Shown: positions 9,213-51,709 of the stretch, piece by piece
Position numbering within the stretch: position 1 is the first letter of the stretch
How the letters are laid out: each line of letters opens with the position of its first letter
NCBI GenBank assembly: GCA_964445435.1
Contig: CAYUKU010000002.1
Span: 47,988-111,987 of the forward strand
Reading direction: 5' to 3'
Origin: an uncultured Gammaproteobacteria bacterium
Lineage (GTDB): Bacteria > Patescibacteriota > Microgenomatia > UBA10105 > UBA927
DNA: 64,000 nt
Notes under the pieces: model-generated
The model's input: the letters and a program-made list of their open reading frames with translations, nothing else
Database searches by the model: none
Told to the model about the DNA's origin: nothing
Program-made: the position numbers and the translations under genes

Positions 9213-11545
9213 AAATGCGTGCGCGCTAGCCAGATGGTTACCCCTATGGCTGCAAGGGGGAAGAACAGAAGCACGATTTTCAGTGTCGAGGGCTTGTAGG
9301 TGAAGGCGACCTCATAGGTGCCGGGTTTATCCAAGAGAATCGCAGTATAGAAGGGGAATACAGTGATGGTCTCGGCAGGGTTTCCGTTTACAGTTGCCTT
9401 CCAGGATGGGTGATAGGTTTGCCGGAGAATGACGACTGAGCGCGGACAGCTTGAGGTGATCTCGACGCGTGCGGCAAATTCCATATCACCGGTCGTTGTC
9501 TGTGAGAGAATCTTCGCGCTGCCATCCGTGCATCCGTCCGGCGCAAGATACGTGGGAATTTCTGCAAGAAGCGAGTGGGTAGTTCCTCCGGGAACCCGGT
9601 AGGTTGCCTCATCCGTCATGCGGAAGTTAGGAAGACCGACTTTTTTGGGGAATGTAGGGTCAAAAACGAGCTGGGGGTAGAGACCCCGCTTGTGGTAGTC
9701 GGACTGGATCCAGAGACGGATGACGTTTATGAATGTTTCTTTTGTTGTAGAGACGATTGCCGGCGAAACACCTGTGGTGATATATCCGTCCGTGTCAACG
9801 GAATAAAGAATCCAGGAGGACGTTTCTTTCATTTTTTTCCAGAAGGGTTGGGAGGGTTGGTCGGGCGGTGCAACTACATAGCGGATGTTGTAGAGAACGT
9901 AATCTCTCGGCTGATCTTCTGAAAAGTACTGCTCGATATCGGAATTGGGGCTCCATGTCTCAGGAAGCCAAAGGACGGTCGGAATGCCATATGTGGACAG
10001 ATGCATATAGTAGGGTGTTTCTGCGACACGGAAATTGCGCCCCCAGGAGCCGCCGCGTCCCGCAAACACCCGGCCCGGGTTGGTTGATAGTTCCTGGTTA
10101 AGGGTGGATAGTAAGAGAGTAGTATCTTTTTCTGCGTTGGCAAAGTTTTCGTTTGCCTGGCGGATGAGTGTGTCGTTATGAGCCGCATAACGTACTGTTT
10201 GGGGATAGACGAAGGAAATGAGAATGACGAGTAGAGCTAATACAACAGAAAGGATGGAAAATTTTAACTTTAATGTTCGAGTTACATAAGACGTAACTCG
10301 GGACGCAAGCTGTTCTAATCCAAGCGGAAGAAGGAAAAGTCCGGCCATTTGTACACCCACGATGAAGCGGGATAGATGAAACTCGCGCATGCCGGGGATA
10401 AGGTCAATGAGTCCTCCCCAGGTTGTCCTGCCGAAATAGAAAAGGATCCAGAAGACGAAAAGGAGCGAAAATGGATAATAAGGTGTAGGAAGAGAAACGA
10501 GAGTTGCAAAAAGAATGATGTAGGTAAGAACAGGGAGTCTTCCGAAGTCGAAGAGCTCGCCATTAAGGAGCCGGATGATCGTATCTCTCGCGCCATAGGA
10601 GTCGAATTTCCACACCGGATCCCAGAAGGAGATATTGTGGTAGTCGCCGTGAAGAAGAATGGGGACGATCCAGTATGCGAGAATGAGTCCTGTGCAGCCA
10701 AACAGGAGCACAAGCCTCTTTCCGGTGGGAAGAAGGGGAGAAATAACCCCCTTCCAGTCAGCATCGAGTGCCGCGCGAAGCGAAGGGGCAAGAGCAAGCA
10801 TCGCAATCGTCAGAAAGGCCATCATGCCGATGCCCAGATGGCCTGCGGTGGTGGCGGTGAGGAAAACAATAGCTCCGAAGACGGAGCCGGTCAATAGGGA
10901 TCCTTCGGGGAGGGTGTTTTTTGATGGCGCTCGACCGAATGCTCCCAAATTCATCAGGTATCTATACGCATACGCAATGGCCAAAGGGAACCAGATCATG
11001 GCAAACAGCTGGCTAGAGAGGCCGTATCCCCGCCACAGAAAGGATGGGGGATCGATACCATAGAGTCCGTCTGTCGACAGGTGGGTCGCAAAAACGGCGC
11101 CCACGCCTGCAGGCATCCAGGAGAGCCCGATGACGCGAAGAGCAAGGAAAACGGAGAGGGGAAACAGGCTTAAGAGGAGATACGTGACGATATGATAGTA
11201 CGAAAATAAGGTAAGCGCGGGAAGAAAAAGATGAAGTACACGCCAGGAGACGACAATAGCAACCTGCGGGATATGGGAATAATAATAGGGAAGATTGTAT
11301 CCCTCGGCCCAGTTGGGAACCCAGTGGTCGACCAGATAAAATGCCATGCAAAACGGTTTGGTAATGCCTGAACATTTTTGTTGCGCAAAATCGAATATTT
11401 GATTCGTCCGGTCAACGAGAGCGAATTGAAAGGTATTATCATTCGGGTCTATCTTTGCGGACAACTCCAAGCGGTAGAGCCAGAGGTTAAAAACTACAGT
11501 CCCGATAAGCATCAAGAGCGCTATATATTTGTCTAACTGTTTCAT
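9194..11545 (-). CDS. Large polytopic membrane protein, YfhO/GT-C-like putative glycosyltransferase
   Basis: 783 aa with more than 12 predicted TM helices in the N-terminal two-thirds, followed by a soluble C-terminal domain. It sits in a glycan locus. The family assignment comes from architecture only. Confidence 0.65.
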   Translation of the reverse strand: MKQLDKYIALLMLIGTVVFNLWLYRLELSAKIDPNDNTFQFALVDRTNQIFDFAQQKCSGITKPFCMAFYLVDHWVPNWAEGYNLPYYYSHIPQVAIVVSWRVLHLFLPALTLFSYYHIVTYLLLSLFPLSVFLALRVIGLSWMPAGVGAVFATHLSTDGLYGIDPPSFLWRGYGLSSQLFAMIWFPLAIAYAYRYLMNLGAFGRAPSKNTLPEGSLLTGSVFGAIVFLTATTAGHLGIGMMAFLTIAMLALAPSLRAALDADWKGVISPLLPTGKRLVLLFGCTGLILAYWIVPILLHGDYHNISFWDPVWKFDSYGARDTIIRLLNGELFDFGRLPVLTYIILFATLVSLPTPYYPFSLLFVFWILFYFGRTTWGGLIDLIPGMREFHLSRFIVGVQMAGLFLLPLGLEQLASRVTSYVTRTLKLKFSILSVVLALLVILISFVYPQTVRYAAHNDTLIRQANENFANAEKDTTLLLSTLNQELSTNPGRVFAGRGGSWGRNFRVAETPYYMHLSTYGIPTVLWLPETWSPNSDIEQYFSEDQPRDYVLYNIRYVVAPPDQPSQPFWKKMKETSSWILYSVDTDGYITTGVSPAIVSTTKETFINVIRLWIQSDYHKRGLYPQLVFDPTFPKKVGLPNFRMTDEATYRVPGGTTHSLLAEIPTYLAPDGCTDGSAKILSQTTTGDMEFAARVEITSSCPRSVVILRQTYHPSWKATVNGNPAETITVFPFYTAILLDKPGTYEVAFTYKPSTLKIVLLFFPLAAIGVTIWLARTHFYRRMA

Positions 11546-11591
11546 ATAGTTTTTCGCGGGTCCTGCCGCAAGCCAAATAACCGCTTTTATA

Positions 11592-13418
11592 TTATGGCCA
11601 TAACATCGTGTTTAGCCAATCTGCGTGGTCGTCTGTCTTTCCGTCGCCTGCATCAGTAACGATGAGTTCCAGCATGTTTACGCCTGAAATATCGACTTCG
11701 GCGTGGCGGGGGTACTCGAACCGCTTCACCAGCTCAGACTGGAAGAGGCGTTTCCCATCTCCCCATATCTCAAAAACAACAGTTGCCTGCGGGCCGCCGT
11801 TGGTGTCCACACCGAAGTCCGTGGTGAGGCGCCGGAATTGGCGGTTGATATGGTACACCTCCCGTGCCGGGGCGTGGGTGCCGATGCCCGTCTTATAAAA
11901 CACATACTGTACCGAGAGAGGTGACCATTTGGAGAAACCAAACGACGCATTGACGGGCATGTTTACCTGCCGTCCGCCGTAGCCGGCAAGCGCGGTGATA
12001 GGAGTGATTTTCGTGATGGATACCGGCTGTTTGAAAAGCAGGGGTTTGTTTACGAGCGTGATGAGTAGAACAAACATGATAACGACAACGATTGCGGTTT
12101 TCTGAAGCGTTGCCGATCTTCGCAAAAGATACAACAGGAAGACGCCGAAGAGTGTGGTTTGGGCGAGAGAGGCCGCGATGGTAAGGAAGGGAGTGTTAAG
12201 CGCAGAGAGAAGCGGAATACCGTTGTTGGGATAATTGACGATAAGCGCGTTATGGAGGTTGAAGAAATATATGACCGTGTATATGCCATAGAGTGTCCAA
12301 AATTGGAGCATCCTTGTGCGTAGTTCTGCCGTTTTTGCGTTTGCGAGGTAAAACGGGAGCCACAAAAGCAAGAATATCGAAAGCGGGAATGCGTAACGAT
12401 CATGGGACTGTGTCTGGAACAGGAAAAACGCGCCGTTGACGAGAATAAGGGATTCGAGAAAACCTTGAAGTAATTCGGCTGGCCGTTTGCTTGCCCGCAA
12501 CTGTTTCAGTGTCGCAAACAAATAGAAAGAGCTGAAGGCAAAAAGTCCAACCGTTTTTGCGTTGGCAATGCCTACGGCCATGACTTTGTCTGACAGCCCC
12601 ATGCCCCGGGCGCCTGAGAATATCCACCATGGGTTATACGCATTGAGGGATAGCCATGGGAAGTAGTCGTAATTGCCAATAATCGAGGCCATGATCCGCC
12701 ACGAATTACCAGCCAGAATAAACTCGGCATTGAGTCCTACGAAGGAGGCAGTAGCGCCCAATAACGTCGTGATAAGTCCCGGTAGTCCGTATGCTTGCCA
12801 TGCAAACAGGAAAAATATGGGCCCGTAAATCATATTTTGGAGTTTGGTCATCATGGCAACCATATAGATGACGCCGGCAAGAGCGAGTTTGCGCTCAAGT
12901 AGAAGAAGAAGGGCGATAAGAAACAGCAATACGCCGACACTGTCTATTTGCCCCCAGAGCGCGCCGTCAAATAACCCAAGCGGCGAGAGGAGATAAACCG
13001 AGGACAGGAGTTCCCAAAACGATAAACCCCAGAATGTCTGGGAAATAACGGGAAAACCGAGTCGTTTGGCATGTCTACCAACATAGAGAAACACGGCCGC
13101 GATCCCGAAGTCGGCCATGATCGGAAACGCTTTGGCAATGGCAAGGAATAGGAGATTCGTGTTTTTCCAGAATTCATTGAAGTTGTGCGGATCGGCAAAC
13201 CAGGTATAGATCCAGACCATGAAGGCGAGAACATACGCAAAGGGAGTGGGGTAGTTGAAGTTGGTAAGGGGTAGGCCTTTTACTGCCCCCACATCCAGAA
13301 CCGCGAGGCCCCAGGATTTCCAGAAGGAAACGTCGGCTTCAAAGCCGGGATTGGGGATAAGAACGAGGCGCGCGGCGAAGGCAAGGGCGAGAAGGGTATA
13401 AAAAAGTGGTCGTTTCAT
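11592..13418 (-). CDS. GT-C-like polytopic membrane protein with a C-terminal NPCBM-like carbohydrate-binding domain
   Basis: 608 aa with a multi-TM N-terminus. The C-terminal ~130 aa (NMPVNASFGFSK...VVFEIWGDGKRLFQSE...LELIVTDAGDGKTDDHADWLNTMLW) carries the NPCBM-type signature, including the terminal DHADW. Confidence 0.7.
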   Translation of the reverse strand: MKRPLFYTLLALAFAARLVLIPNPGFEADVSFWKSWGLAVLDVGAVKGLPLTNFNYPTPFAYVLAFMVWIYTWFADPHNFNEFWKNTNLLFLAIAKAFPIMADFGIAAVFLYVGRHAKRLGFPVISQTFWGLSFWELLSSVYLLSPLGLFDGALWGQIDSVGVLLFLIALLLLLERKLALAGVIYMVAMMTKLQNMIYGPIFFLFAWQAYGLPGLITTLLGATASFVGLNAEFILAGNSWRIMASIIGNYDYFPWLSLNAYNPWWIFSGARGMGLSDKVMAVGIANAKTVGLFAFSSFYLFATLKQLRASKRPAELLQGFLESLILVNGAFFLFQTQSHDRYAFPLSIFLLLWLPFYLANAKTAELRTRMLQFWTLYGIYTVIYFFNLHNALIVNYPNNGIPLLSALNTPFLTIAASLAQTTLFGVFLLYLLRRSATLQKTAIVVVIMFVLLITLVNKPLLFKQPVSITKITPITALAGYGGRQVNMPVNASFGFSKWSPLSVQYVFYKTGIGTHAPAREVYHINRQFRRLTTDFGVDTNGGPQATVVFEIWGDGKRLFQSELVKRFEYPRHAEVDISGVNMLELIVTDAGDGKTDDHADWLNTMLWP

Positions 13419-13430
13419 ATCAATGCTTAA

Positions 13431-13470
13431 GCGGCAAATGCGCAGTTGTCTTCAAAAATTGTTTGCGCCG
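13431..13470. repeat. Partial (right-arm only) copy of the intergenic repeat element
   Basis: gcggcaaatgcgcagttgtcttcaaaaattgtttgcgccgc matches the right arm of copy 1 at about 23 of 25 positions. Confidence 0.4.
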
Positions 13471-13495
13471 CTGCGTAAATTGGTCGCTCCCTCGT

Positions 13496-14140
13496 CTATT
13501 TATTCCAGCTCACTGAATCGACAATGGCGTCAAATATGTTTTTCGGAAGCGGACCGTTGGCCATGTGGATGACGTAGCGGCCGTCGGGGGAGGAGAGGAA
13601 GATATCTTCGTTCGGTGTCTGGCCGGAGGCGTTTATGAATTTCACGCGGTAGCCGGATAATCCTTTCTTATTCGTAAAGGCACCTATCGAAGAAATACCC
13701 TTAAGACCGCTGAATTGTTTCCACCAATTCTCGACATAGGCACGTTTGTTGGCTTTTATATACCCTTTGAGGCTTTCGGTGCGATTGAGATCGTCAACGC
13801 CAATCATGACGTTTTGTTCCGGCGGCTGGTTATTGATGGAAAGAGCGTAAATGTCATATGTGTCGTCGGGGAAGGTGACGAAGGTAAGGTCAGATGGCGC
13901 CTCAAATGCGTACGGGTACAAGCGGCCTTTTATGGTGACCATGTTGCCTTTCGCCGGCTCTTTGGCTACTGTCGGTGAACTTTCAGGTTTGGGTGTTGAG
14001 CCCAGGTACGTGCCTCCCGCCGGAAGAACGATCGTACCTGTTTTTTGGAATGCGAGATTATGCTGCAGTATGACAAGAAGGACGAGAAAAGAGCTTGCGA
14101 TGACAGCGATGAGAAGTGTCCGTTTCATGGATTGGCTCAT
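13496..14140 (-). CDS. Hypothetical secreted or membrane-anchored protein
   Basis: N-terminal signal anchor MKRTLLIAVIASSFLVLLVIL followed by a soluble domain. The start may be the Met at ~14128. Confidence 0.55.
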   Translation of the reverse strand: MSQSMKRTLLIAVIASSFLVLLVILQHNLAFQKTGTIVLPAGGTYLGSTPKPESSPTVAKEPAKGNMVTIKGRLYPYAFEAPSDLTFVTFPDDTYDIYALSINNQPPEQNVMIGVDDLNRTESLKGYIKANKRAYVENWWKQFSGLKGISSIGAFTNKKGLSGYRVKFINASGQTPNEDIFLSSPDGRYVIHMANGPLPKNIFDAIVDSVSWNK

Positions 14141-16440: not shown

Positions 16441-16603
16441 TCTGGGTCCTGCCGCTTGAAGTATGTTCCGTCAGTGCTCCTCGTCACCGGACCCACCTTT
16501 GTTTCATCACATCTCCTGACCCCACTCACTGCGTAAAAGTTGTATTTCTTGTCTTTCGTATCATTCGTTCCGAGTCCGCGCTGCCGGGCACCCTCTTCTC
16601 GCG

Positions 16604-17323
16604 TCACCCAGATTTATCGTTATTTTTGTAAAACACTCTCTGTTCGATCCAGAGGCGCAGAAGTTCGCGGATGGTCATAAGGATCATAAAGGGATTTGCG
16701 CCTTTGGCGCGGCCGGTGGTGCGGGGGTAGTAGGGAATGGCGACTTCTGAAAATTTATAACCCTTTTGCCATGCCTTGTAGATAACCTCCGGTTCGATAA
16801 GGGCGCTTCTTGGCATGGCAGTGATGTCGATACTGTCGAGGACTTTCTTCCGCCACAGGATGCTTGTGGAAATTTCCTTCAGGCGCACGCCAAACAGTGT
16901 ACGGTAGACCGAGTGAAAGATAAACGAATTAAGTTTGCGCGACCAGGGTTCCGGATTGTTTTTCCGATATCCGACGACAACGTCCGCATGATCCAGCGTA
17001 TCCAAAAAGAGCTTGCAGTCGGAAGCTTTTATCTGACCGTCGGCGGGAAGAAGAAAGATAAGATCTTTGGATGCCGATTTATAGCAGGATTTGATGGCGC
17101 CCGAAAACCCCTGGTTTACGCGGTGACGGATGAGCCGGATGTCTTTGTGTTTTTTTGCCAGGTTTTTGAGAATTTCGTGGGTGCCGTCGGTCGAGCCGTC
17201 GTCGACAATGAGAATTTCCCTGTCACGGGCGCTTCTTTTGGCGACTGCTAATGCTTCCAGAACGACTGATTCTACTGATCCAGCCTCGTTATACGCGGGA
17301 ATGGCGATCGTGAGACTGTTCAT
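16604..17323 (-). CDS. Family 2 glycosyltransferase (polyprenol-phosphate sugar transferase, Dpm1/GtrB-like)
   Basis: N-terminus IAIPAYNEAGSVESVV...ILIVDDGSTDGT with GT-A fold DxD context and the DDGS signature. Confidence 0.85.
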   Translation of the reverse strand: MNSLTIAIPAYNEAGSVESVVLEALAVAKRSARDREILIVDDGSTDGTHEILKNLAKKHKDIRLIRHRVNQGFSGAIKSCYKSASKDLIFLLPADGQIKASDCKLFLDTLDHADVVVGYRKNNPEPWSRKLNSFIFHSVYRTLFGVRLKEISTSILWRKKVLDSIDITAMPRSALIEPEVIYKAWQKGYKFSEVAIPYYPRTTGRAKGANPFMILMTIRELLRLWIEQRVFYKNNDKSG

Positions 17324-18722
17324 ATATTCGCTCGATTATAGCATGGAGACTTTTCGCGCTCGCGAGTACTTTCGTCGGACGGGCCGCGGCAAGGAGTTTC
17401 TTCGTCCGGAGTCCCGTGGCGATGCCAATACACGCGATACCAAGCGATTGGGCCGCCTCGATATCGACCAGGGTGTCGCCCACGACGACAAATGGTTTGG
17501 GGCGGATGGTAGACAGGGCGTATGATTTGCCCTTTTTCCGCGGGGTAAGAACGTGAGAGGAGGGAAACCATCGGGAAAGACCGAGTGAAGACAATTGGCG
17601 CATGAGGCGCGCGCGGTTTTGGCGCAGAGTCACGATATAGAGGGGAAAACGGTTGAAGAGGTGTTCGATTGCCGCTTCAGCTTGAGGAAAAACGGTGTCA
17701 AGCCTGAGATACCGCGTATCTTCAATGTGCCGGCGAAAACGGGAAACATACTGCTTCGTCTGTGTGTTTGGAATCGGCGTAGCGTTTCTGCGGTTGTTCC
17801 AGTAGGCATGGGAAGAAAGGGGGCGATAGCCAAGCCCGGTCATGATGTCGCGATAGACCTGTGCATAGCGTTTGTGCGCATCGAGAATGGTGCCATCCAG
17901 GTCGAAGACAACCGGAGGCATGAATTGTTCTTCCAGCCGGTCAGGGAAAAGAAATCGCGGGGTGAAGGAAAGTGTTTTCCTGGCTTTCGCAATCGAGTAT
18001 ACGAGATTATTTCTGGGGGCTCCTGGTTTTTCCCTGACAGGGACTGTCGGAGACACGAGCCGTGAAACGGACTTTGCAACACTGCGCAGGGTTACTGCAT
18101 GCCCCGTTCCTATGCAAAACACTCCGGCAGAAAATTTCTCCACTGAGAGGAGTACCGCACGGGCGGCATCGTCAACGTGGAGGTAATCACGTTTGTTTTC
18201 TGCTCCAAAGATGACGATGGGGTTTCCGCTTTGAGCGGTGTGAATGAAATTGGGGATCGCGCGGGAAATCGTGTCGCCTGATCCGTAGATGACCGAGAAA
18301 CGAAGGACCATCGCGTCGGGGAGGAGATGTTCGCAGGCGAGTTTGCTTTTGCCATACCAAGAAATTGGATTTGCAGGCGTTTTCTCCGATATTTTTTTGG
18401 TGCCGATTATTCCATATACCTCAATTGTGCTTGCGAAGATAATGTTTCGGGTTCCGAAGACTGATATGAGATTTCTGGTCATGCGGATGTTTCTGGTAAA
18501 GAGTTCTTTCGTGTCATCTTTTTTGGTCTTCGGCACTTCGGCGGCAAGATGAATGATGAGGTCGATGGGCGGAAGTGATTTCGCAAGGCGGGCGAGGGAT
18601 GTTCGGTTGAGAAGATCATATTGCGGGCGGCGTATGGTAAATACGCGGTGACGGGTTTGCCGAAGCTGCGTGTAGACCCTGGATCCCAGAAATCCGGAGC
18701 TGCCGGTGAGAAGTATGTTCAT
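17289..18722 (-). CDS. Fusion protein: NAD-dependent epimerase/dehydratase (N-terminal) and HAD-superfamily hydrolase (C-terminal)
   Basis: N-terminal Rossmann motif MNILLTGSSGFLGSRV. C-terminal HAD motif I VVFDLDGTILD and the terminal motif VVVGDTLVDIEAA. The gene overlaps the downstream GT2 by 35 nt. Confidence 0.8.
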   Translation of the reverse strand: MNILLTGSSGFLGSRVYTQLRQTRHRVFTIRRPQYDLLNRTSLARLAKSLPPIDLIIHLAAEVPKTKKDDTKELFTRNIRMTRNLISVFGTRNIIFASTIEVYGIIGTKKISEKTPANPISWYGKSKLACEHLLPDAMVLRFSVIYGSGDTISRAIPNFIHTAQSGNPIVIFGAENKRDYLHVDDAARAVLLSVEKFSAGVFCIGTGHAVTLRSVAKSVSRLVSPTVPVREKPGAPRNNLVYSIAKARKTLSFTPRFLFPDRLEEQFMPPVVFDLDGTILDAHKRYAQVYRDIMTGLGYRPLSSHAYWNNRRNATPIPNTQTKQYVSRFRRHIEDTRYLRLDTVFPQAEAAIEHLFNRFPLYIVTLRQNRARLMRQLSSLGLSRWFPSSHVLTPRKKGKSYALSTIRPKPFVVVGDTLVDIEAAQSLGIACIGIATGLRTKKLLAAARPTKVLASAKSLHAIIERIYEQSHDRHSRV

Positions 18723-18741
18723 ACGTTTTCATAACCGGCTT

Positions 18742-18886
18742 GTGAACGAATTTGTAAAGACACGCTCAACTGATGGCTCTTTTGCCCTTATACGTTTCCC
18801 CGTTTTTCGCTAAGTGCGCGTTTGCACATAAGAGGAATTCCTCACATGAACCGAGCAAACGCGCAGTTGTCTTCAAAATTGTTCAC
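18742..18886. repeat. Copy 1 of a ~145-bp structured intergenic repeat element (imperfect terminal inverted repeats plus an internal 10-bp stem)
   Basis: gtgaacgaatttgtaaagaca...tgtcttcaaaattgttcac. Internal gcgcgtttgc / gcaaacgcgc stem. Lies between the minus-strand genes 17289-18722 and 18907-19947. Confidence 0.5.
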
Positions 18887-18906
18887 TTGCCGTTTATCAA
18901 CAACTG

Positions 18907-19947
18907 CTACTTTTTTAACTTTTTCATCGTCGTTAAAACAGGCAAAAAGTCCATGCCGCGGATCCAGACGAGACCGGTAGGCAGGGGATTAATGCGGCGC
19001 TTGGGGAGGGCAACTTTCTCGCCGAATGCGAGTTTGGTGTAGATGTACGGCATATTTAGGCCTGCCTGGGTAAAGAAGTGGTGCGTGGTAAAGAATCTCC
19101 CGATGTTGATCTCCGTCGGGTTTGGCTGGCCTTTCCGGTCATACGTTAAGTCCACGCCGTAGAGTCCGTGTGGTTTGGGGTCAATGGCGAGAATTGTTTC
19201 CTTTGCAATACGGTCGACATGCCGATCCCTGATCGTCAGTCCCGCACCCGTCACGCCCGTGATGCCGGAAGGGGAGACTTTCCCCATTTCCCAATAGAGC
19301 CGTTTTCTTCCTTGTGCGAGGATGAGATTGCCGTCCAGCCAAATAGACATCCAGGTGACGCTGTGGGGAGACAAATAGGATGCTGCAGTGAAGTGTCCCC
19401 AGCCGTCATGGAAATCGATCCATGAGGTTGCCTGTTTTACGCTCGTTGCCGGAAGTGATCCTTTGCCTGCTGCGCCGTGAATGTTGCGTAGCCAAAGAGG
19501 TGGCCCCAGCGTCGCAAACGCGTGCGCAAGGTCCGAGGGGGTGCTGATAAGCATCGTTTTGGGGACCGTTATTCCCGCCTTCTGCCACGCTACATACGAA
19601 CGGTATTTGTCCTGACAGGTGACGACAACATCGTTCGGAGGGAGAAATAAGCGTACGGGAAGTTTACCCCGATTACGGCTGAACCAGAGGATTTCCTCAT
19701 CATTCTGTACGTGAACGAAGTCGATTTTTTCTTTCTTAATAATGGTAAGAAGTTTCTTGCGAAAACTGCGGTCAGACGCTTTGGGCACCAAATAACGCGC
19801 GTCTGTCTCTGCACGGGCAAGGTAATACGGATCGGCGTCAGTGCCGACGAGATAGAATTTTTCCGGTGCACTTCGAAGCGAGCGGACGAAGTTGGTGGCG
19901 GGGGCGCCGCCCGCGCCCGCAACAAGGATACGTTTAGTCCTGTTCAT
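18907..19947 (-). CDS. ATP-grasp domain enzyme
   Basis: Start taken at MNRTKRILVAGAGGAPATNF (ATG at 19945-19947). Pre-ATP-grasp and ATP-grasp layout, with motifs such as HVQNDEE and a C-terminal E..N.GR-type signature. Confidence 0.7.
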   Translation of the reverse strand: MNRTKRILVAGAGGAPATNFVRSLRSAPEKFYLVGTDADPYYLARAETDARYLVPKASDRSFRKKLLTIIKKEKIDFVHVQNDEEILWFSRNRGKLPVRLFLPPNDVVVTCQDKYRSYVAWQKAGITVPKTMLISTPSDLAHAFATLGPPLWLRNIHGAAGKGSLPATSVKQATSWIDFHDGWGHFTAASYLSPHSVTWMSIWLDGNLILAQGRKRLYWEMGKVSPSGITGVTGAGLTIRDRHVDRIAKETILAIDPKPHGLYGVDLTYDRKGQPNPTEINIGRFFTTHHFFTQAGLNMPYIYTKLAFGEKVALPKRRINPLPTGLVWIRGMDFLPVLTTMKKLKK

Positions 19948-19989
19948 AATTTCATAGTAGATGTTTTCCGTGCGAACGATATCAGCTTC

Positions 19990-20133
19990 GCACACGAATT
20001 TGCAAAGACACGCTCACCAGATGGTTCTCTCGATTAAATAAGTAACCCCATCGTTCGCTACGTGAGCGTTCGCATATACAGTCATATTGACGAATGAAGA
20101 GCGAACGCTCAGTTGTCTTTGCACACTGTGCGC
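19990..20133. repeat. Copy 2 of the same ~145-bp structured intergenic repeat element
   Basis: gcacacgaatttgcaaagaca...tgtctttgcacactgtgcgc. Internal gagcgttcgc / gcgaacgctc stem carrying two compensatory base-pair changes relative to copy 1. Confidence 0.5.
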
Positions 20134-20195
20134 TACGCGCCGGTTCGCAGGAATTTTTCCGTGCCACCCGTCTGGCAAAGCACTGCAAAATTATA

Positions 20196-21341
20196 CTATT
20201 TCATCAATTGGGCAGTGAATGTGAGTATACGGTCGATGACAAAATCCTGCTCTTTGGGCGTAAGCCCCTTATAGATAGGAATGGTAAGCGTCTCTTTCGA
20301 GGCAAGCTCGGTGTGGGGGAGTTTGAGTTTCGGATAGAGCTTGCGGTAGGGGGCTTCCAAATGGGCAGAAGGGATGCCCCGGCGTGTGGCGATCCCAGCA
20401 TCAAGGAGTTTCTGCATGAGCCGGTCGCGGATACGAGCGCCGCCTGAGAGTCTGATCATATATGACTGATAGGTGTGGAAATACCCTTCGGGAATAAACG
20501 GGGGAATGATAACAGGATGACCCGCAAATGCCATGTTGTAGCGTTTACCAACCTCCTGTCGCGCTTCCAGAATCGAGGCTAATTTCGTAAATTGCGAGAG
20601 CCCAAGTGCCGCGTGGATATCAGACATTCTCAGGTTGTACCCGATAAGAGGATAGGATTCAAATAATACTTTGCGACTGTTATCTCTCTTCTTCACATCT
20701 ATCGACGCGCCGTGAGCCCGCAACATGGAAACGATTTTTGCGATGTTTGCATTTTTGGTCACCAGAAGACCGCCCTCCGCTGTCGTGATTGCTTTACGCG
20801 GGTGAAAGGAAAACGCGCCCCATGCCCCCCAATTTCCGACATGTTTGCCGTGTATCGTTGAGGCCAAACCACAAGCACAATCCTCAAAAAGGAGTACTTT
20901 TGCTGTTCGCGCGGTTTTCGCGAGTTTTGGCAGGTCGGCAGCCAACCCTACCTGGTGGACAGCGAGGATACCCCGTGTTTTTTTCGTAATTTTCCGTTCG
21001 ACGTCAGCGGGATCCAGATTGTAGGTTGCGGGATCTATGTCGACAAACACAGGGGTTGCTCCCGCATGAACGATACAGTTGGCGCTTGCGATAAATGAGA
21101 ATGAAGGGACCAGCACTTCATCGCCCGGGCCGATACCGCTTGCGAGAAGTCCCAGGTGCATGGCGGTGGTAGCGCTTGAAGTGGCGACGGAATAGGGACT
21201 CCCGATGTAGTCGCCGAGAAGTTTCTCCAATGCTTCTACTTTGGGGCCCTGAAGGACCCATCCGGAGCGTACGACCGAGGCAACGGCCTCTTCATCGTCT
21301 TTCGTAAAATATGGTTTGGCAACCGGAATTATTTTTTTCAT
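20196..21341 (-). CDS. DegT/DnrJ/EryC1/StrS-family PLP-dependent sugar aminotransferase
   Basis: MKKIIPVAKPYFTKDDEEAV...VATSSATTAMHLGL...GDEVLVPSFSFIASAN, typical of the family. A Lys-containing region follows downstream. Confidence 0.9.
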   Translation of the reverse strand: MKKIIPVAKPYFTKDDEEAVASVVRSGWVLQGPKVEALEKLLGDYIGSPYSVATSSATTAMHLGLLASGIGPGDEVLVPSFSFIASANCIVHAGATPVFVDIDPATYNLDPADVERKITKKTRGILAVHQVGLAADLPKLAKTARTAKVLLFEDCACGLASTIHGKHVGNWGAWGAFSFHPRKAITTAEGGLLVTKNANIAKIVSMLRAHGASIDVKKRDNSRKVLFESYPLIGYNLRMSDIHAALGLSQFTKLASILEARQEVGKRYNMAFAGHPVIIPPFIPEGYFHTYQSYMIRLSGGARIRDRLMQKLLDAGIATRRGIPSAHLEAPYRKLYPKLKLPHTELASKETLTIPIYKGLTPKEQDFVIDRILTFTAQLMK

Positions 21342-21796
21342 TTGAGATATTTTTTACTCGACCCAACCACTTTTCCCGGGACGCCCATGACGAGCGAGTA
21401 GGGAGGGATGGTTGTCCCTTCCGGAACGACGCAACCTGCTCCGATGACGCTATGATGGCCGATCGTCGATCCCATAAGAATTACCGCATTGGAGCCGATA
21501 AAGCAATAGTCGCCGATGGTCACATCACCCGTGTCGATCTTGTCGTATGCGCGCTCACTGACGCAGCGGCGGACTGTGGAGTGGCTAATGACCTGGGCAC
21601 CTGTTGCGATATTGCAGCCTTTTCCTATCGTCACGCTGGCGTGTTTGGCATCGATGAGCGTGAATGCGCCGATCCAGGTGCCTTCACCAATTACGGGATT
21701 CCCCAGAATCCAGGCGTGGGGATTGTAGGGGTTGGGCGGGAAGCCGTGACTCAGCGCGGACCCTGCCGGACTATTTGTATTCTTTTTCATTACCAA
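21338..21796 (-). CDS. Hexapeptide-repeat (left-handed beta-helix) sugar acetyltransferase
   Basis: Repeated [LIV]GxxxxI hexapeptides (IGEGTWIGAFTLI, IGDYCFIGSNAVI, IGHHSVIGAGCVV). Its ATGA start/stop overlaps the aminotransferase gene. Confidence 0.85.
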   Translation of the reverse strand: MVMKKNTNSPAGSALSHGFPPNPYNPHAWILGNPVIGEGTWIGAFTLIDAKHASVTIGKGCNIATGAQVISHSTVRRCVSERAYDKIDTGDVTIGDYCFIGSNAVILMGSTIGHHSVIGAGCVVPEGTTIPPYSLVMGVPGKVVGSSKKYLK

Positions 21797-50037: not shown

Positions 50038-51177
50038 TTACGACTTCCAGATGTTGTGGACAAGGACGCCCTCAACGAAATAGTTGTGTTCTGCTCCAGG
50101 GAGGCTCAGGTTGTAAACCGGCGGATTTTCGTCGACCGCGACTACAGATTCTACTGTCACTGCGTTTCCGTCCGGTCCCAGAAGCGTATCGCCCGCTCTA
50201 ACTGCGTCTGCACGAAGCCACAGGCCGCGGTTTGCGACCCAGAGGTTATGGCCTTTCGTGACTCTCAGTGTACCGTTAATAACCAAGTATCCTGCTTCCT
50301 GCGACTCAGGATCTGCAGATGGACTCGGGTGGGCAAGAAGTGCTGTCACTGTGTTGGGAACCAATTTGCCCGTAGAAAGATTGTAGGATAAAACGACGTC
50401 TCCCGGACGGATATCCTGAATTTCCTTCATCGTGCCGTCGGCCATGAGCACCCTAGAACCGGCGAGGAAGCATCCGCCGTAGCTGCCATATGATGCCTGG
50501 CCGTAGCCGTAATAGCCAGCCTGACCGTAACCGTAGCTGTATGAGTAGTAGGCGCTTTGCGCGTAGCCGTAATATGCAGCCTGACCGTAGGCGTAGCTAT
50601 ACGCATAATAATTGCTTTGGCTGTAGGTGTAATAATTGGCCTGACCGTAGGCGTAGTATGTGGACTGAGCGTAGGAGTAGCAGTTGTTGGTCAGTGTTCC
50701 ATCACTCGGATCACAATCAGCCGTCGTTGTTTTCATGAGTCCCATGCGTCGGTAGCCGGATGCAGTGGATGAGCGTCGTGGGTAGTTCGTATCGTCCGTC
50801 CAGTCGTTGACCCAGCCGTCTGCGTCGTTATCATAGATCCAAATGCCGCCGCCGGGGAGAAGCTGTCCGCTTCCGATGGCGATTCCGCCGGAACCGTTGA
50901 TGATAAATTGTCCAGCGACGATCTTCTGACCGGACGAAAGTGTCAGATTATAATTACCTAGCGTGATGGAGCCGGTGTTTGACGTACCCGTTTCAGAGTT
51001 TTGCGGATTATCGACACCATCCACGGTATAGGCAAACGTGCATGATGCGGTAAGCGTGATATTACCATATGTCGTTGTCGGGCGGGCACAGTCAGCCAAA
51101 ACACGCTCCTGTGGCATAAGCACGAAAAGGAAAAGAAGAGCGAGAAACGAGCCGATCGTTGAGAGACCTTTTTTCAT
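50038..51177 (-). CDS. Secreted protein with a Tyr/Gly/Gln-rich repeat tract and a C-terminal Hint (Hedgehog/intein-like, BIL-type) domain
   Basis: Start MKKGLSTIGSFLALLFLFVL (ATG at 51175-51177). Hint block A CFLAGSRVLMADGTMKEIQDIRPGDVV, block B TKGH (TxxH), and a C-terminal ...VEGVLVHN followed by only IWKS. A Tyr-rich low-complexity region lies upstream of the Hint domain. Confidence 0.8.
   Translation of the reverse strand: MKKGLSTIGSFLALLFLFVLMPQERVLADCARPTTTYGNITLTASCTFAYTVDGVDNPQNSETGTSNTGSITLGNYNLTLSSGQKIVAGQFIINGSGGIAIGSGQLLPGGGIWIYDNDADGWVNDWTDDTNYPRRSSTASGYRRMGLMKTTTADCDPSDGTLTNNCYSYAQSTYYAYGQANYYTYSQSNYYAYSYAYGQAAYYGYAQSAYYSYSYGYGQAGYYGYGQASYGSYGGCFLAGSRVLMADGTMKEIQDIRPGDVVLSYNLSTGKLVPNTVTALLAHPSPSADPESQEAGYLVINGTLRVTKGHNLWVANRGLWLRADAVRAGDTLLGPDGNAVTVESVVAVDENPPVYNLSLPGAEHNYFVEGVLVHNIWKS
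50470..50700. repeat. Tandem ~45-nt degenerate direct repeats that encode the Tyr-rich tract (YAYGQA-YY-Y-QS)n
   Basis: Recurring gcctgaccgta(g/a)(g/c)cgtag(c/t)t and gtagccgtaata blocks are visible on the plus strand. Confidence 0.5.
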
Positions 51178-51178
51178 A

Positions 51179-51709
51179 TTATCTGAACGCGAATCCCCCG
51201 TTATATGTGGCGTCCTGCCCGACGAGCGTAAAGTCAAGGTAATACGTCTCCTCATGGGTGTCATCCGCAGTCAGGGTTGCCTGCCAGGTTCCATTCGTAT
51301 CCGTTCCCGCCGTGCGGGTGAAGGTAAGCGGTGTTTTTTTCGTATCGGTATCGAGCCTTGCTGTTACGGAGGTTATGGGAGTAGTGTAGGTTGCCTTAAC
51401 CGTAATGGTTTGTTTGGCTCCGACTTTCACATCCAAAGGATCGAGTGCGAATTCATAGATTTTCGGTCCCACTGCCTTGGGTCCGGGGGCGAAGGTAAAC
51501 GTTTCCTTCCCAGGATTGAGCTTGCGGGGTTTCGGTTTCGGAGTAGGGGTGCCTGATGCCATGGCGATTTCTTTTTCCTCTTTCGGCGTCCCCATGAACC
51601 AATTAGTTCCCTTCTGGGAGACGATATACCATCCGAGCAAAACGACGACAACGATTCCGACAAGGAGAGCAGTATTAGAAGATTGCTTCGTGGACTTGGA
51701 CTTTTTCAC
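51179..51709 (-). CDS. Membrane-anchored hypothetical protein (beta-sandwich-like), co-transcribed upstream of the Hint protein
   Basis: GTG start, TM helix ALLVGIVVVVLLGWYIV, a Pro/Lys-rich linker and a Thr-rich beta-strand domain. Its stop lies 1 nt before the Hint gene start. Confidence 0.55.
   Translation of the reverse strand: MKKSKSTKQSSNTALLVGIVVVVLLGWYIVSQKGTNWFMGTPKEEKEIAMASGTPTPKPKPRKLNPGKETFTFAPGPKAVGPKIYEFALDPLDVKVGAKQTITVKATYTTPITSVTARLDTDTKKTPLTFTRTAGTDTNGTWQATLTADDTHEETYYLDFTLVGQDATYNGGFAFR

Follow-up and report, generated by a model that had tools for sequence, protein, structure and literature searches.

The 64,000-nucleotide (nt) stretch of contig CAYUKU010000002.1 analysed here (the window) carries a surface-glycan gene cluster whose genes all lie on the minus strand and are transcribed in the order hexapeptide transferase, DegT-type aminotransferase, ATP-grasp ligase, epimerase-HAD fusion, and GT2 glycosyltransferase (Table 1). 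Two junctions of the cluster are opened by spacers, 248 nt long between the DegT and ATP-grasp genes and 184 nt long between the ATP-grasp and epimerase-HAD genes, each of which contains one copy of a palindromic element; the hexapeptide transferase/DegT junction (21338-21341) has no spacer in the window. The element consists of a hairpin structure of 145 nt with a GC content of ~47%, embedded in the case of copy 2 in a full unit of 242 nt, and it probably represents a new family of small, non-autonomous, mobile nested-palindrome repeats, similar in kind to miniature inverted-repeat transposable elements (MITEs), in a lineage of the Patescibacteria, or candidate phyla radiation (CPR).

Table 1. 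Genes of the glycan cluster, copies of the palindromic element, and flanking repeats in the window.
Feature	Position	Strand	Remark
Hexapeptide transferase	21338-21796	-	
DegT-type aminotransferase	20196-21341	-	
ATP-grasp ligase	18907-19947	-	
Epimerase-HAD fusion	17289-18722	-	
GT2 glycosyltransferase	16604-17323	-	
214-amino-acid (aa) protein	13496-14140	-	Farther downstream in cluster
608-aa membrane protein with NPCBM domain	11592-13418	-	
783-aa membrane protein	9194-11545	-	
Whole inserted unit with copy 2, 242 nt	19956-20197	-	Filled and empty sites compared
Copy 2, subtype II	19990-20133	-	Y-shaped nested palindrome; between DegT stop (20196) and ATP-grasp start (19947)
Copy 2, covariance-model match	19986-20140	-	165.6 bits
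Copy 2, P2 arms GAGCGTTCGC/GCGAACGCTC	20064-20073/20101-20110		Plus-strand coordinates
ATGAAAT, upstream direct repeat	20198-20204	-	Putative target-site duplication; final T opens DegT stop TAG
ATGAAAT, downstream direct repeat	19949-19955	-	Empty junctions: L001, L030, L031
Copy 1, subtype I, short form	18742-18886	-	Y-shaped nested palindrome; between ATP-grasp stop (18907) and epimerase-HAD start (18722)
Copy 1, covariance-model match	18738-18894	-	143 bits
Copy 1, P2 arms GCGCGTTTGC/GCAAACGCGC	18816-18825/18855-18864		Plus-strand coordinates
TGATAAACG, imperfect direct repeat, upstream flank of copy 1	18891-18899	-	Weak evidence
TGAAAACG, downstream partner of copy-1 imperfect repeat	18724-18731	-	Matches empty-site TGAAAAC of L001
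5' half copy	13431-13470	-	5' terminal repeat and 5' arm of P2; nothing beyond that arm

A first-pass annotation had described colinear homologous elements of ~145 base pairs (bp) with terminal inverted repeats in the two spacers, together with a half copy, all sited between co-directional minus-strand glycan genes (DegT, ATP-grasp, and epimerase-HAD for the full copies, the 214-aa gene and then the NPCBM gene for the half copy), and this description is borne out in each respect. The two copies align at 72.9% identity over 129 nt (blastn, E 1e-13) and at 70% globally, and their termini pair with each other in the predicted folds of both. A 22-nt block from the 3' side, GAGCGTGTCTTTRCAAATTCGT, occurs exactly twice in the 64 kb (0 expected), and a 19-nt block from the 5' side, AAGACAACTGMGCRTTYGC, occurs three times against 0.05 expected; the third occurrence, at 13434-13452, confirms the half copy, which ends 12 nt before the ATG (13418) of the NPCBM gene, is preceded by a short version of the element's upstream module (13471-13493), and is unchanged in a 94% relative (L035). 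A covariance model run over the whole window with filters off yielded the two full copies and no others.

Syntenic loci of relatives were retrieved via homologues of the ATP-grasp and NPCBM proteins. L021, L022, and L035, with a DegT protein 98% identical to that of the window, constitute the window's own species-level group; proteins are 80-89% identical in L001 and L036, ~65-85% in L005, L030, and L034, 60-75% in L031, and 49-57% in L023 (the same organism as L037-L040, GCA_035510735.1), and the ATP-grasp of L041 is 75% identical. The names of homologues place the group within the Patescibacteria (CPR), close to Gottesmanbacteria, and by this route the window is probably of the same phylum; one protein of L023 is 100% identical to one labelled 'Patescibacteria group bacterium'. 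In L030, L031, and L041, the hexapeptide transferase, DegT, ATP-grasp, and epimerase genes, as well as the 214-aa, NPCBM, and 783-aa genes, overlap by ATGA or stand a few bases apart, and this tightly packed, ATGA-overlapping arrangement is, judged from these loci, the ancestral state.

Against this background, the element is found at different places in different relatives. In L001, the closest relative outside the species-level group, both junctions that are occupied in the window are empty (a 4-nt overlap and a 17-nt spacer), and a full copy (L001a) stands between the hexapeptide transferase and DegT genes, with a 5' half copy after GT2 (5142-5174). Within the species-level group, copy 2 recurs in L021 and L022 at 97% identity, and the copy-1 junction of these two loci holds a different subtype with a long 5' module, inside which both contigs stop at the same base, the behaviour to be expected where a repeat interrupts assembly. 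Between the window and L021, identity is 97.2% for copy 2 and 96.6% for third codon positions of DegT, a pair of values uninformative on constraint after insertion. A scan of a metagenome collection, blind to gene context and with a pattern that left variable stem positions free, gave seven loci, one of which is a true copy (L023) and six of which have no complementary arm; the true copy lies in the same syntenic cluster, with the NPCBM gene on one side and the following membrane-protein gene on the other. A second, decayed copy (39 bits with model R1) follows 640 nt downstream in this organism (L023/L038), where it adds 153 nt (51 codons), in frame, to that membrane-protein gene, and the corresponding segment is missing between two conserved blocks in four orthologues; the other ~20 kb of L038 contains none. 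Neither covariance model (R1 or R2) found the family in L005, L030, L031, L034, or L041. At orthologous sites, then, junctions are empty in L001, L030, L031, and L041, with the element at other junctions in relatives, and such a patchy distribution combined with variable positions is a signature of mobility. Copies within one genome (~70% identity) are as divergent as copies from different genomes, which argues that there was no recent burst.

Comparison of filled and empty sites also delimits the insertion that carries copy 2. The inserted unit consists of a 5' extension with a 'ACGGGTGGCACGG' module, the hairpin, and a 3' tail; in the predicted fold of 19935-20210 (-89.6 kcal/mol, z -3.6), its termini AGTA...TACT are paired together. 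With the slash marking the inner edge of each flanking repeat, the DegT end in the window reads ...CAATTGATGAAAT/AG and the downstream flank reads ATGAAAT/TATGAAC. The downstream repeat and the bases next to it form ATGAAATTATGA, encoding M-K-L-stop and overlapping the ATP-grasp ATG, as does the ancestral DegT end in L001, L030, and L031. Since the ancestral gene end is kept downstream and a matching repeat stands upstream, ATGAAAT can be read as a 7-bp target-site duplication. The DegT stop is now TAG and is partly supplied by the element, and ATP-grasp has kept its original start. The imperfect repeats flanking copy 1 are weak evidence, as they overlap an outward extension of the palindrome, and no duplication is evident for L001a, so that a target duplication is clear for copy 2 only and imperfect for copy 1.

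The copy-2 insert also touches gene calling. The database protein for ATP-grasp (P0001, 362 aa) begins at a GTG at 19995, inside the element (window 19948-19995, minus strand), and orthologues begin at the position of ATG 19947 (MNRTKRILV compared with MMKRILV or MKRILV); the first 16 residues of P0001 are probably a gene-calling artefact from the insert. At the other end of the same gene, the window (18907-18940, minus strand) and L021 (2500-2570) share 96.8% identity across the first 1034 nt of ATP-grasp and then diverge completely, differing beyond that point in their Lys-rich C-termini and in element subtype, a pattern suggestive of recombination or replacement with a breakpoint at the gene's 3' end.

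The fold of the element is conserved despite the divergence of its sequence. On the gene-sense strand, predicted folding energies are -51.1 kcal/mol for copy 1 (z -4.3 relative to shuffled sequences) and -56.5 kcal/mol for copy 2 (z -4.5), and the other strand gives similar z-scores. RNAalifold on five copies predicts a Y shape in which the terminal inverted repeats pair as the outer stem, P1, and enclose an 11-bp hairpin, P2, and an interrupted hairpin, P3. P1 is present in every full copy, with outermost bases poorly conserved in sequence; conservation extends to the junction sequences AAGACAACUG, CAYUUAGCGAA, and GAGCGNGUCU but not to the loops. The annotation had pointed to an internal stem with two exactly compensatory differences between the copies; both are confirmed, and L001 contributes a third compensatory P2 variant (GCGCATTTGC/GCAAATGCGC). 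In an alignment of seven copies from four organisms, fitted to the covariance model, standard pairs occupy 90.9% of pair cells despite pairwise identities of 58-70%, changes on both sides occur in 12 of 32 pairs, and the observed values were reached by none of 500 column shuffles; slid-partner controls were 22-51% paired, and P2 alone has four positions with both-sided changes and one mismatch. With few sequences, aligned by fitting to the model, this covariation evidence is solid rather than overwhelming. The copies fall, moreover, into two old subtypes, subtype I with P2 = GCGCRTTTGC (copy 1, the half copy, L001a, and L023a) and subtype II with P2 = GAGCRTTCGC (copy 2 and both L021 copies), so part of the covariation consists of a few events inherited by subfamilies. 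In this alignment, the covariation between copies nevertheless reflects selection for the fold, and the annotation's argument from compensatory changes is strengthened by the 12 pairs and the 500 shuffles. The same annotation had treated covariation and target-site duplication as alternatives, but both are present here, and the two are already known to occur together in structured bacterial MITEs such as bcr1 (PMC3184786). Both half copies (that of the window and that of L001) end exactly after the 5' arm of P2, the former upstream of a start codon and the latter between convergent genes; the common end point may be the edge of a discrete 5' module or the result of a deletion mediated by the hairpin.

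The composition of the paired positions bears on the molecule under selection. Watson-Crick pairs number 174, sense-strand G-U pairs occupy 5 cells, and A-C mismatches, which are G-U pairs on the other strand, occupy 4. A typical RNA has a clear G-U excess on its own strand; as G-U and A-C are equally rare here, neither RNA strand is favoured, and this symmetry fits a DNA-level palindrome or selection on both strands at least as well as it fits selection on RNA. It would suit a structure-specific DNA element moved in single-stranded or cruciform form by an HUH/Y1 enzyme (as in IS200/IS605 or REP-RAYT) or by a recombinase (attC-like), for which near-pure Watson-Crick pairing without strand asymmetry, selection seemingly acting on the hairpins rather than on terminus sequence, and a strict orientation bias of the kind expected of strand-specific single-stranded-DNA mechanisms all speak, as do termini common to families (AGTATAA...TACT in copy 2 and AGATAA...TACT in a separate palindrome family, family C, of L005). 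The window, however, contains no Y1, RAYT, or integrase gene; the bases 5' of the hairpin (GTAG, GCAG, CAAG, GGCG, and GGTT) show no conserved GTAG-type guide; the attC core GTTRRRY is absent; and IS200/IS605 elements make no target duplication, in contrast to copy 2. An origin of this kind is accordingly quite improbable.

Nor need the copies have spread by transposition if they arose through local recombination within the cluster, that is, by template switching or illegitimate recombination at ATGAAA microhomology, with hairpin-templated repair keeping the arms complementary. The restriction of the copies to one cluster, the TGAAA-like character of all junctions, and the TGAA-containing, length-variable nature of the apparent 'duplications' are in keeping with such a process, and so is the lack of homology between the P2 apices of different copies, each of which is nonetheless self-complementary. 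The same family is found, however, at different junctions in organisms with ~50% protein identity, which calls for long persistence and repeated moves or for transfer between genomes; two distinct old subtypes coexist in one genome, and the in-frame copy does not lie at an ATGA junction. Taken together, these points render purely local recombination highly unlikely.

The first-pass annotation had offered three candidates: a MITE-like mobile repeat, a cis-regulatory leader or processing site, and a small RNA. Only the first of these has gained, through the empty orthologous junctions, the different junctions occupied in L001, the copy inside an open reading frame (ORF), and the 7-bp duplication. 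A lineage-specific, cis-acting structured RNA that this glycan operon had acquired and that controls the genes downstream of each copy, whether as a leader, as an intercistronic processing or stabilising site, or as a riboswitch-like sensor, would be expected to have what the element displays in its three-way junction, conserved junction sequences, variable loops, and covarying stems. It would also agree with the sense orientation of every copy, with the siting of the intergenic copies, which end 12-45 nt upstream of a start codon, with the confinement of all known copies to one syntenic glycan cluster (including the copy found in metagenomes from sequence alone), and with the sharing of an element of 58-70% nucleotide identity among organisms whose orthologous proteins are only 49-57% identical. 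Its position among orthologous operons is not kept, however: ATGA overlaps are ancestral, and close relatives either lack the element or have it at other junctions (it is absent from the same junctions in L001, L030, L031, L034, and L041, and, by both covariance models, from L005). There is also the copy set in frame within a coding sequence, and a half copy flanked by convergent genes, a setting in which a leader would be senseless; sense-strand G-U pairs are not in excess over A-C; neither a terminator nor an evident Shine-Dalgarno-sequestering platform was found; and Rfam had no hit at the gathering score for the window, L001, and L023, and none of relevance when the limit was relaxed to E 10. 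The Rfam models for hammerhead, twister, pistol, hatchet, and HDV-like ribozymes matched no copy, a test outside which a novel class would fall. A conserved regulatory RNA is for these reasons unlikely.

The third candidate, independent small-RNA genes that each have their own promoter and terminator, is without support and extremely improbable. The predicted fold is stable, and a sigma-70-like sequence (TTCACT-18-TATAAT, 20219-20190) places its -10 hexamer at the 5' end of the copy-2 unit, but the region has no more promoter-like matches than chance would give (6 against 6.4 expected), its terminator-like matches are also at chance level, and the element is not followed by a terminator; nor would such genes be expected to lie in sense orientation within an operon, at variable positions, or as half copies and an in-frame copy. 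The sigma-70-like match itself (20190-20219, minus strand) scores 10 of 12, and an internal promoter may have come with the copy-2 insert, as is the case with Correia elements; matches of this kind occur in the region at chance frequency.

A mobile palindromic repeat therefore remains the reading that we consider probable, and the following course of events may be envisaged. An ancestral operon, tightly packed with ATGA stop/start overlaps, would have received units of ~150-240 nt secondarily, at or beside those overlaps; in the cleanest case, duplication of ATGAAAT would have allowed the upstream gene to keep a stop and the downstream gene to keep its start. Both strands of the insert could fold as a Y with P1, the 11-bp P2, and P3. 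Selection for this fold may have operated in transposition-competent source lineages through structure-specific DNA recognition or, alternatively, may have arisen since only compactly folding inserts would be tolerated inside a polycistronic mRNA. Co-transcription with the flanking mRNA is likely, given the sense orientation inside an operon; the transposition machinery, the transcription of the element, and any effects on mRNA stability or translational coupling are parts of this scheme that we infer.

Several observations sit uneasily with a mobile repeat. Copy number is low, with 2.5 copies in the 64 kb of the window, all inside 6.7 kb, and two in 22 kb of GCA_035510735.1; copies within a genome are just ~70% identical, unlike those of a recently active MITE; and conservation is lowest at the outermost ends of the terminal repeats, although it should be highest in a repeat bound by a transposase. 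A clear target-site duplication accompanies one copy only, and the window ORFs scanned contain no transposase, integrase, or reverse-transcriptase domain. Furthermore, the eight insertion sites known from three lineages, among them the one found blind to context, are all confined to one syntenic glycan cluster. As most loci were retrieved through proteins of this cluster, the sample behind that restriction is biased; in the window itself, the other 57 kb contain no copies, and the chance of all three falling within the 12-kb core is ~(12/64)^3 = 0.007. Lastly, all 7-8 insertion sites are in sense orientation (p roughly 0.01 if independent). Plain random transposition predicts neither the cluster restriction nor the orientation bias, and these two features, together with the divergence of the copies, the decay of their ends, and the common end of the half copies, keep alive readings that involve a host-level function of the fold in the operon mRNA, local spread, or a strand-specific mechanism.

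One such reading would combine mobility with function: the element would be a mobile, self-folding, three-way-junction RNA module tied to one CPR surface-glycan cluster, inserting at ATGA overlaps and thereby uncoupling or recoupling cistrons. The module might be a new processing site or a self-cleaving motif, or the stem that closes it might place the stop codon of the upstream gene close to the start codon of the downstream one. Were this so, the cluster restriction, the sense orientation, and the conservation at ~50% protein identity would amount to a host-level function; we regard it as distinctly unlikely. Should the cluster restriction and the orientation bias hold genome-wide, the element would become a candidate for a domesticated intercistronic RNA module.

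Searches for the element elsewhere, and for coding capacity within it, were negative. No match was found in viral contigs or in phage and plasmid records; six-frame peptides of all copies, compared with 5.8 billion proteins, gave nothing at E 1 or better, and no reading frame is open in all copies. A scan of a genome collection with the 3' block GCGTGTCTTTNCAAATTCG gave 15 matches of 19-22 nt each in unrelated phyla, where ~17 are expected by chance (an estimate). A number of known identities were considered and set aside. A sigma-54 promoter in the upstream module TGGCACGG fails on the spacing of GG to GC, which is 17 nt rather than 12; an attC site fails on the absence of the core sites RYYYAAC ... 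GTTRRRY at the ends and on the flanking genes, which are syntenic operon genes rather than cassettes; and the template/variable pair of a diversity-generating retroelement fails in that positions other than adenines differ as well and a reverse transcriptase is absent from the neighbourhood. A hammerhead-like core was rejected in view of the CUGA of copy 2, which is paired within P2 and not conserved in copy 1. Membership of REP/BIME-RAYT was rejected on length (145 nt), GC content (~47%), the lack of a conserved 5' GTAG, and the lack of a RAYT gene in the window. Likewise, the palindromes of family C (L005 and L034) are not detectable as relatives of the element, here family A, with either covariance model.

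Repeats other than the element itself populate the same junctions. Family B is represented in the window by 16441-16603 and a remnant at 11546-11591 (both minus strand), in L001 by 1-125, 740-806, and 8095-8127, and in L036 by 1-140 and 2050-2085. Its members begin with ACGGGTGGCACGC.AAGAGGG right after stop codons and end in a hairpin, GGGTCC...ACGAGGAGCACTG...GCGGCAGGACCCGC, just before start codons; the junctions that they occupy differ between the window and L001/L036, and the contigs of L001 and L036 break within the family. As the 5' module of family B is also part of the long-form element (copy 2 and the L021 and L001 copies L021dn and L001b), the spacers are mosaics of modules. Family C, apparently unrelated, comprises palindromes at three operon junctions of L005 (8514-8679, 9826-10000, and 11048-11145) and one in L034 (1893-1952), with a 3' module, CTTTCTTT..ATTTCTTTG-N6-CAAAGAAATG, lying just upstream of ATG and capable of two alternative hairpins; the termini of the member at the L005 DegT/ATP-grasp junction (AGATAA...TACT) resemble those of the copy-2 unit (AGTATAA...TACT). 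At the junction of the NPCBM gene with the next gene, L031 carries a ~120-nt palindrome (13970-14089; TGCGTGTGTGTGCGAAC...), and L005 carries a GIY-YIG nuclease gene between inverted repeats (18230-18598; GTCATTCCGG...CTGGAATGAC). Since unrelated palindromic inserts have come to lie at the same junctions in other lineages, this operon seems to have general insertion hot spots at its ATGA junctions.

With the element family and at least three unrelated palindromic families, the ATGA overlaps of a surface-glycan operon are recurrent insertion sites, and a target duplication that spans such an overlap can regenerate both a stop and a start codon, so that a tightly coupled operon tolerates the insertion. 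CPR genomes measure roughly 1 Mb and are usually held to be poor in mobile DNA. Full-text literature searches found no description of small structured mobile repeats in the candidate phyla radiation, and such repeats appear to be undescribed there so far. In practical terms, the element causes a probable mis-call of a start codon (ATP-grasp) and breaks short-read assemblies.

The remainder of the window has repetitive features of its own. Imperfect tandem repeats with a 24/60-nt periodicity (GCCGTAGCCGTAATA...) at 50474-50680 lie in the minus-strand ORF 50038-51264, which has a PT-HINT/Hint domain at its C-terminus, and they are probably a repetitive, low-complexity region of a polymorphic-toxin-like protein. 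Between 51842 and 62604 on the plus strand, at least eight co-directional ORFs of ~340-535 aa have short conserved DNA blocks in common (GTGTTATCACGG..., TTCTACCACGGGTT...), and none of the five that were scanned has a Pfam match; these ORFs may be tandemly arrayed paralogues of unknown function. The glycan cluster is bordered by giant ORFs in the window (3-8051, plus strand, >2682 aa) as well as in L030 (20707-21047) and L038 (15637-21905), and the called products in relatives measure 13,956 and 17,282 aa.

Among known systems, REP and BIME sequences resemble the element as intergenic operon palindromes and as mosaics of modules (here families A and B with the upstream module); unlike it, REPs are GC-rich, 20-40 nt long, begin with 5' GTAG, and occur in hundreds of copies alongside a RAYT gene. 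ERIC sequences of enterobacteria (IRU, YPAL) are imperfect palindromes of ~127 nt in transcribed intergenic regions of operons and are thought to form an RNA hairpin that influences mRNA decay. They form a single long hairpin and number tens to hundreds of copies, whereas the element has three stems, few copies, and a CPR host. The Correia elements of Neisseria (NEMIS) are 100-155 bp long with terminal inverted repeats and a target duplication, insert beside genes, are co-transcribed with them, and can have promoter-like hexamers at their ends. They differ in duplicating TA, in their well-conserved 26-bp terminal repeats, and in their hundreds of copies, compared with a 7-bp duplication and least-conserved ends here; they are treated in the reviews by Delihas (PMC2229807; PMC3184786). 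In-frame palindromic repeats inside genes are also already known (PMC3184786; also PMC2229807). By description, the in-frame copy of L023/L038, which adds a peptide of 51 codons, is like the Rickettsia palindromic elements (RPE), from which the family differs in that most of its copies are intergenic. The closest parallel is offered by bcr1 of the Bacillus cereus group, an element of ~155 bp with 5-bp direct repeats, whose positions differ between strains and in which compensatory changes keep a cruciform-like fold (Delihas, 2011; PMC3184786). Compared by description rather than by sequence, the two have in common a length of ~150 nt, a non-coding and intergenic nature, non-conserved positions, short direct repeats, and compensatory changes; the element differs in its host phylum, in a Y fold with two inner hairpins, in a low, cluster-restricted copy number, and in having one clear duplication. 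Mobile nested-palindrome repeats are thus already a known kind of element, to which the present family is a new addition, not assigned to any named family and with bcr1 and ERIC as its nearest known counterparts.

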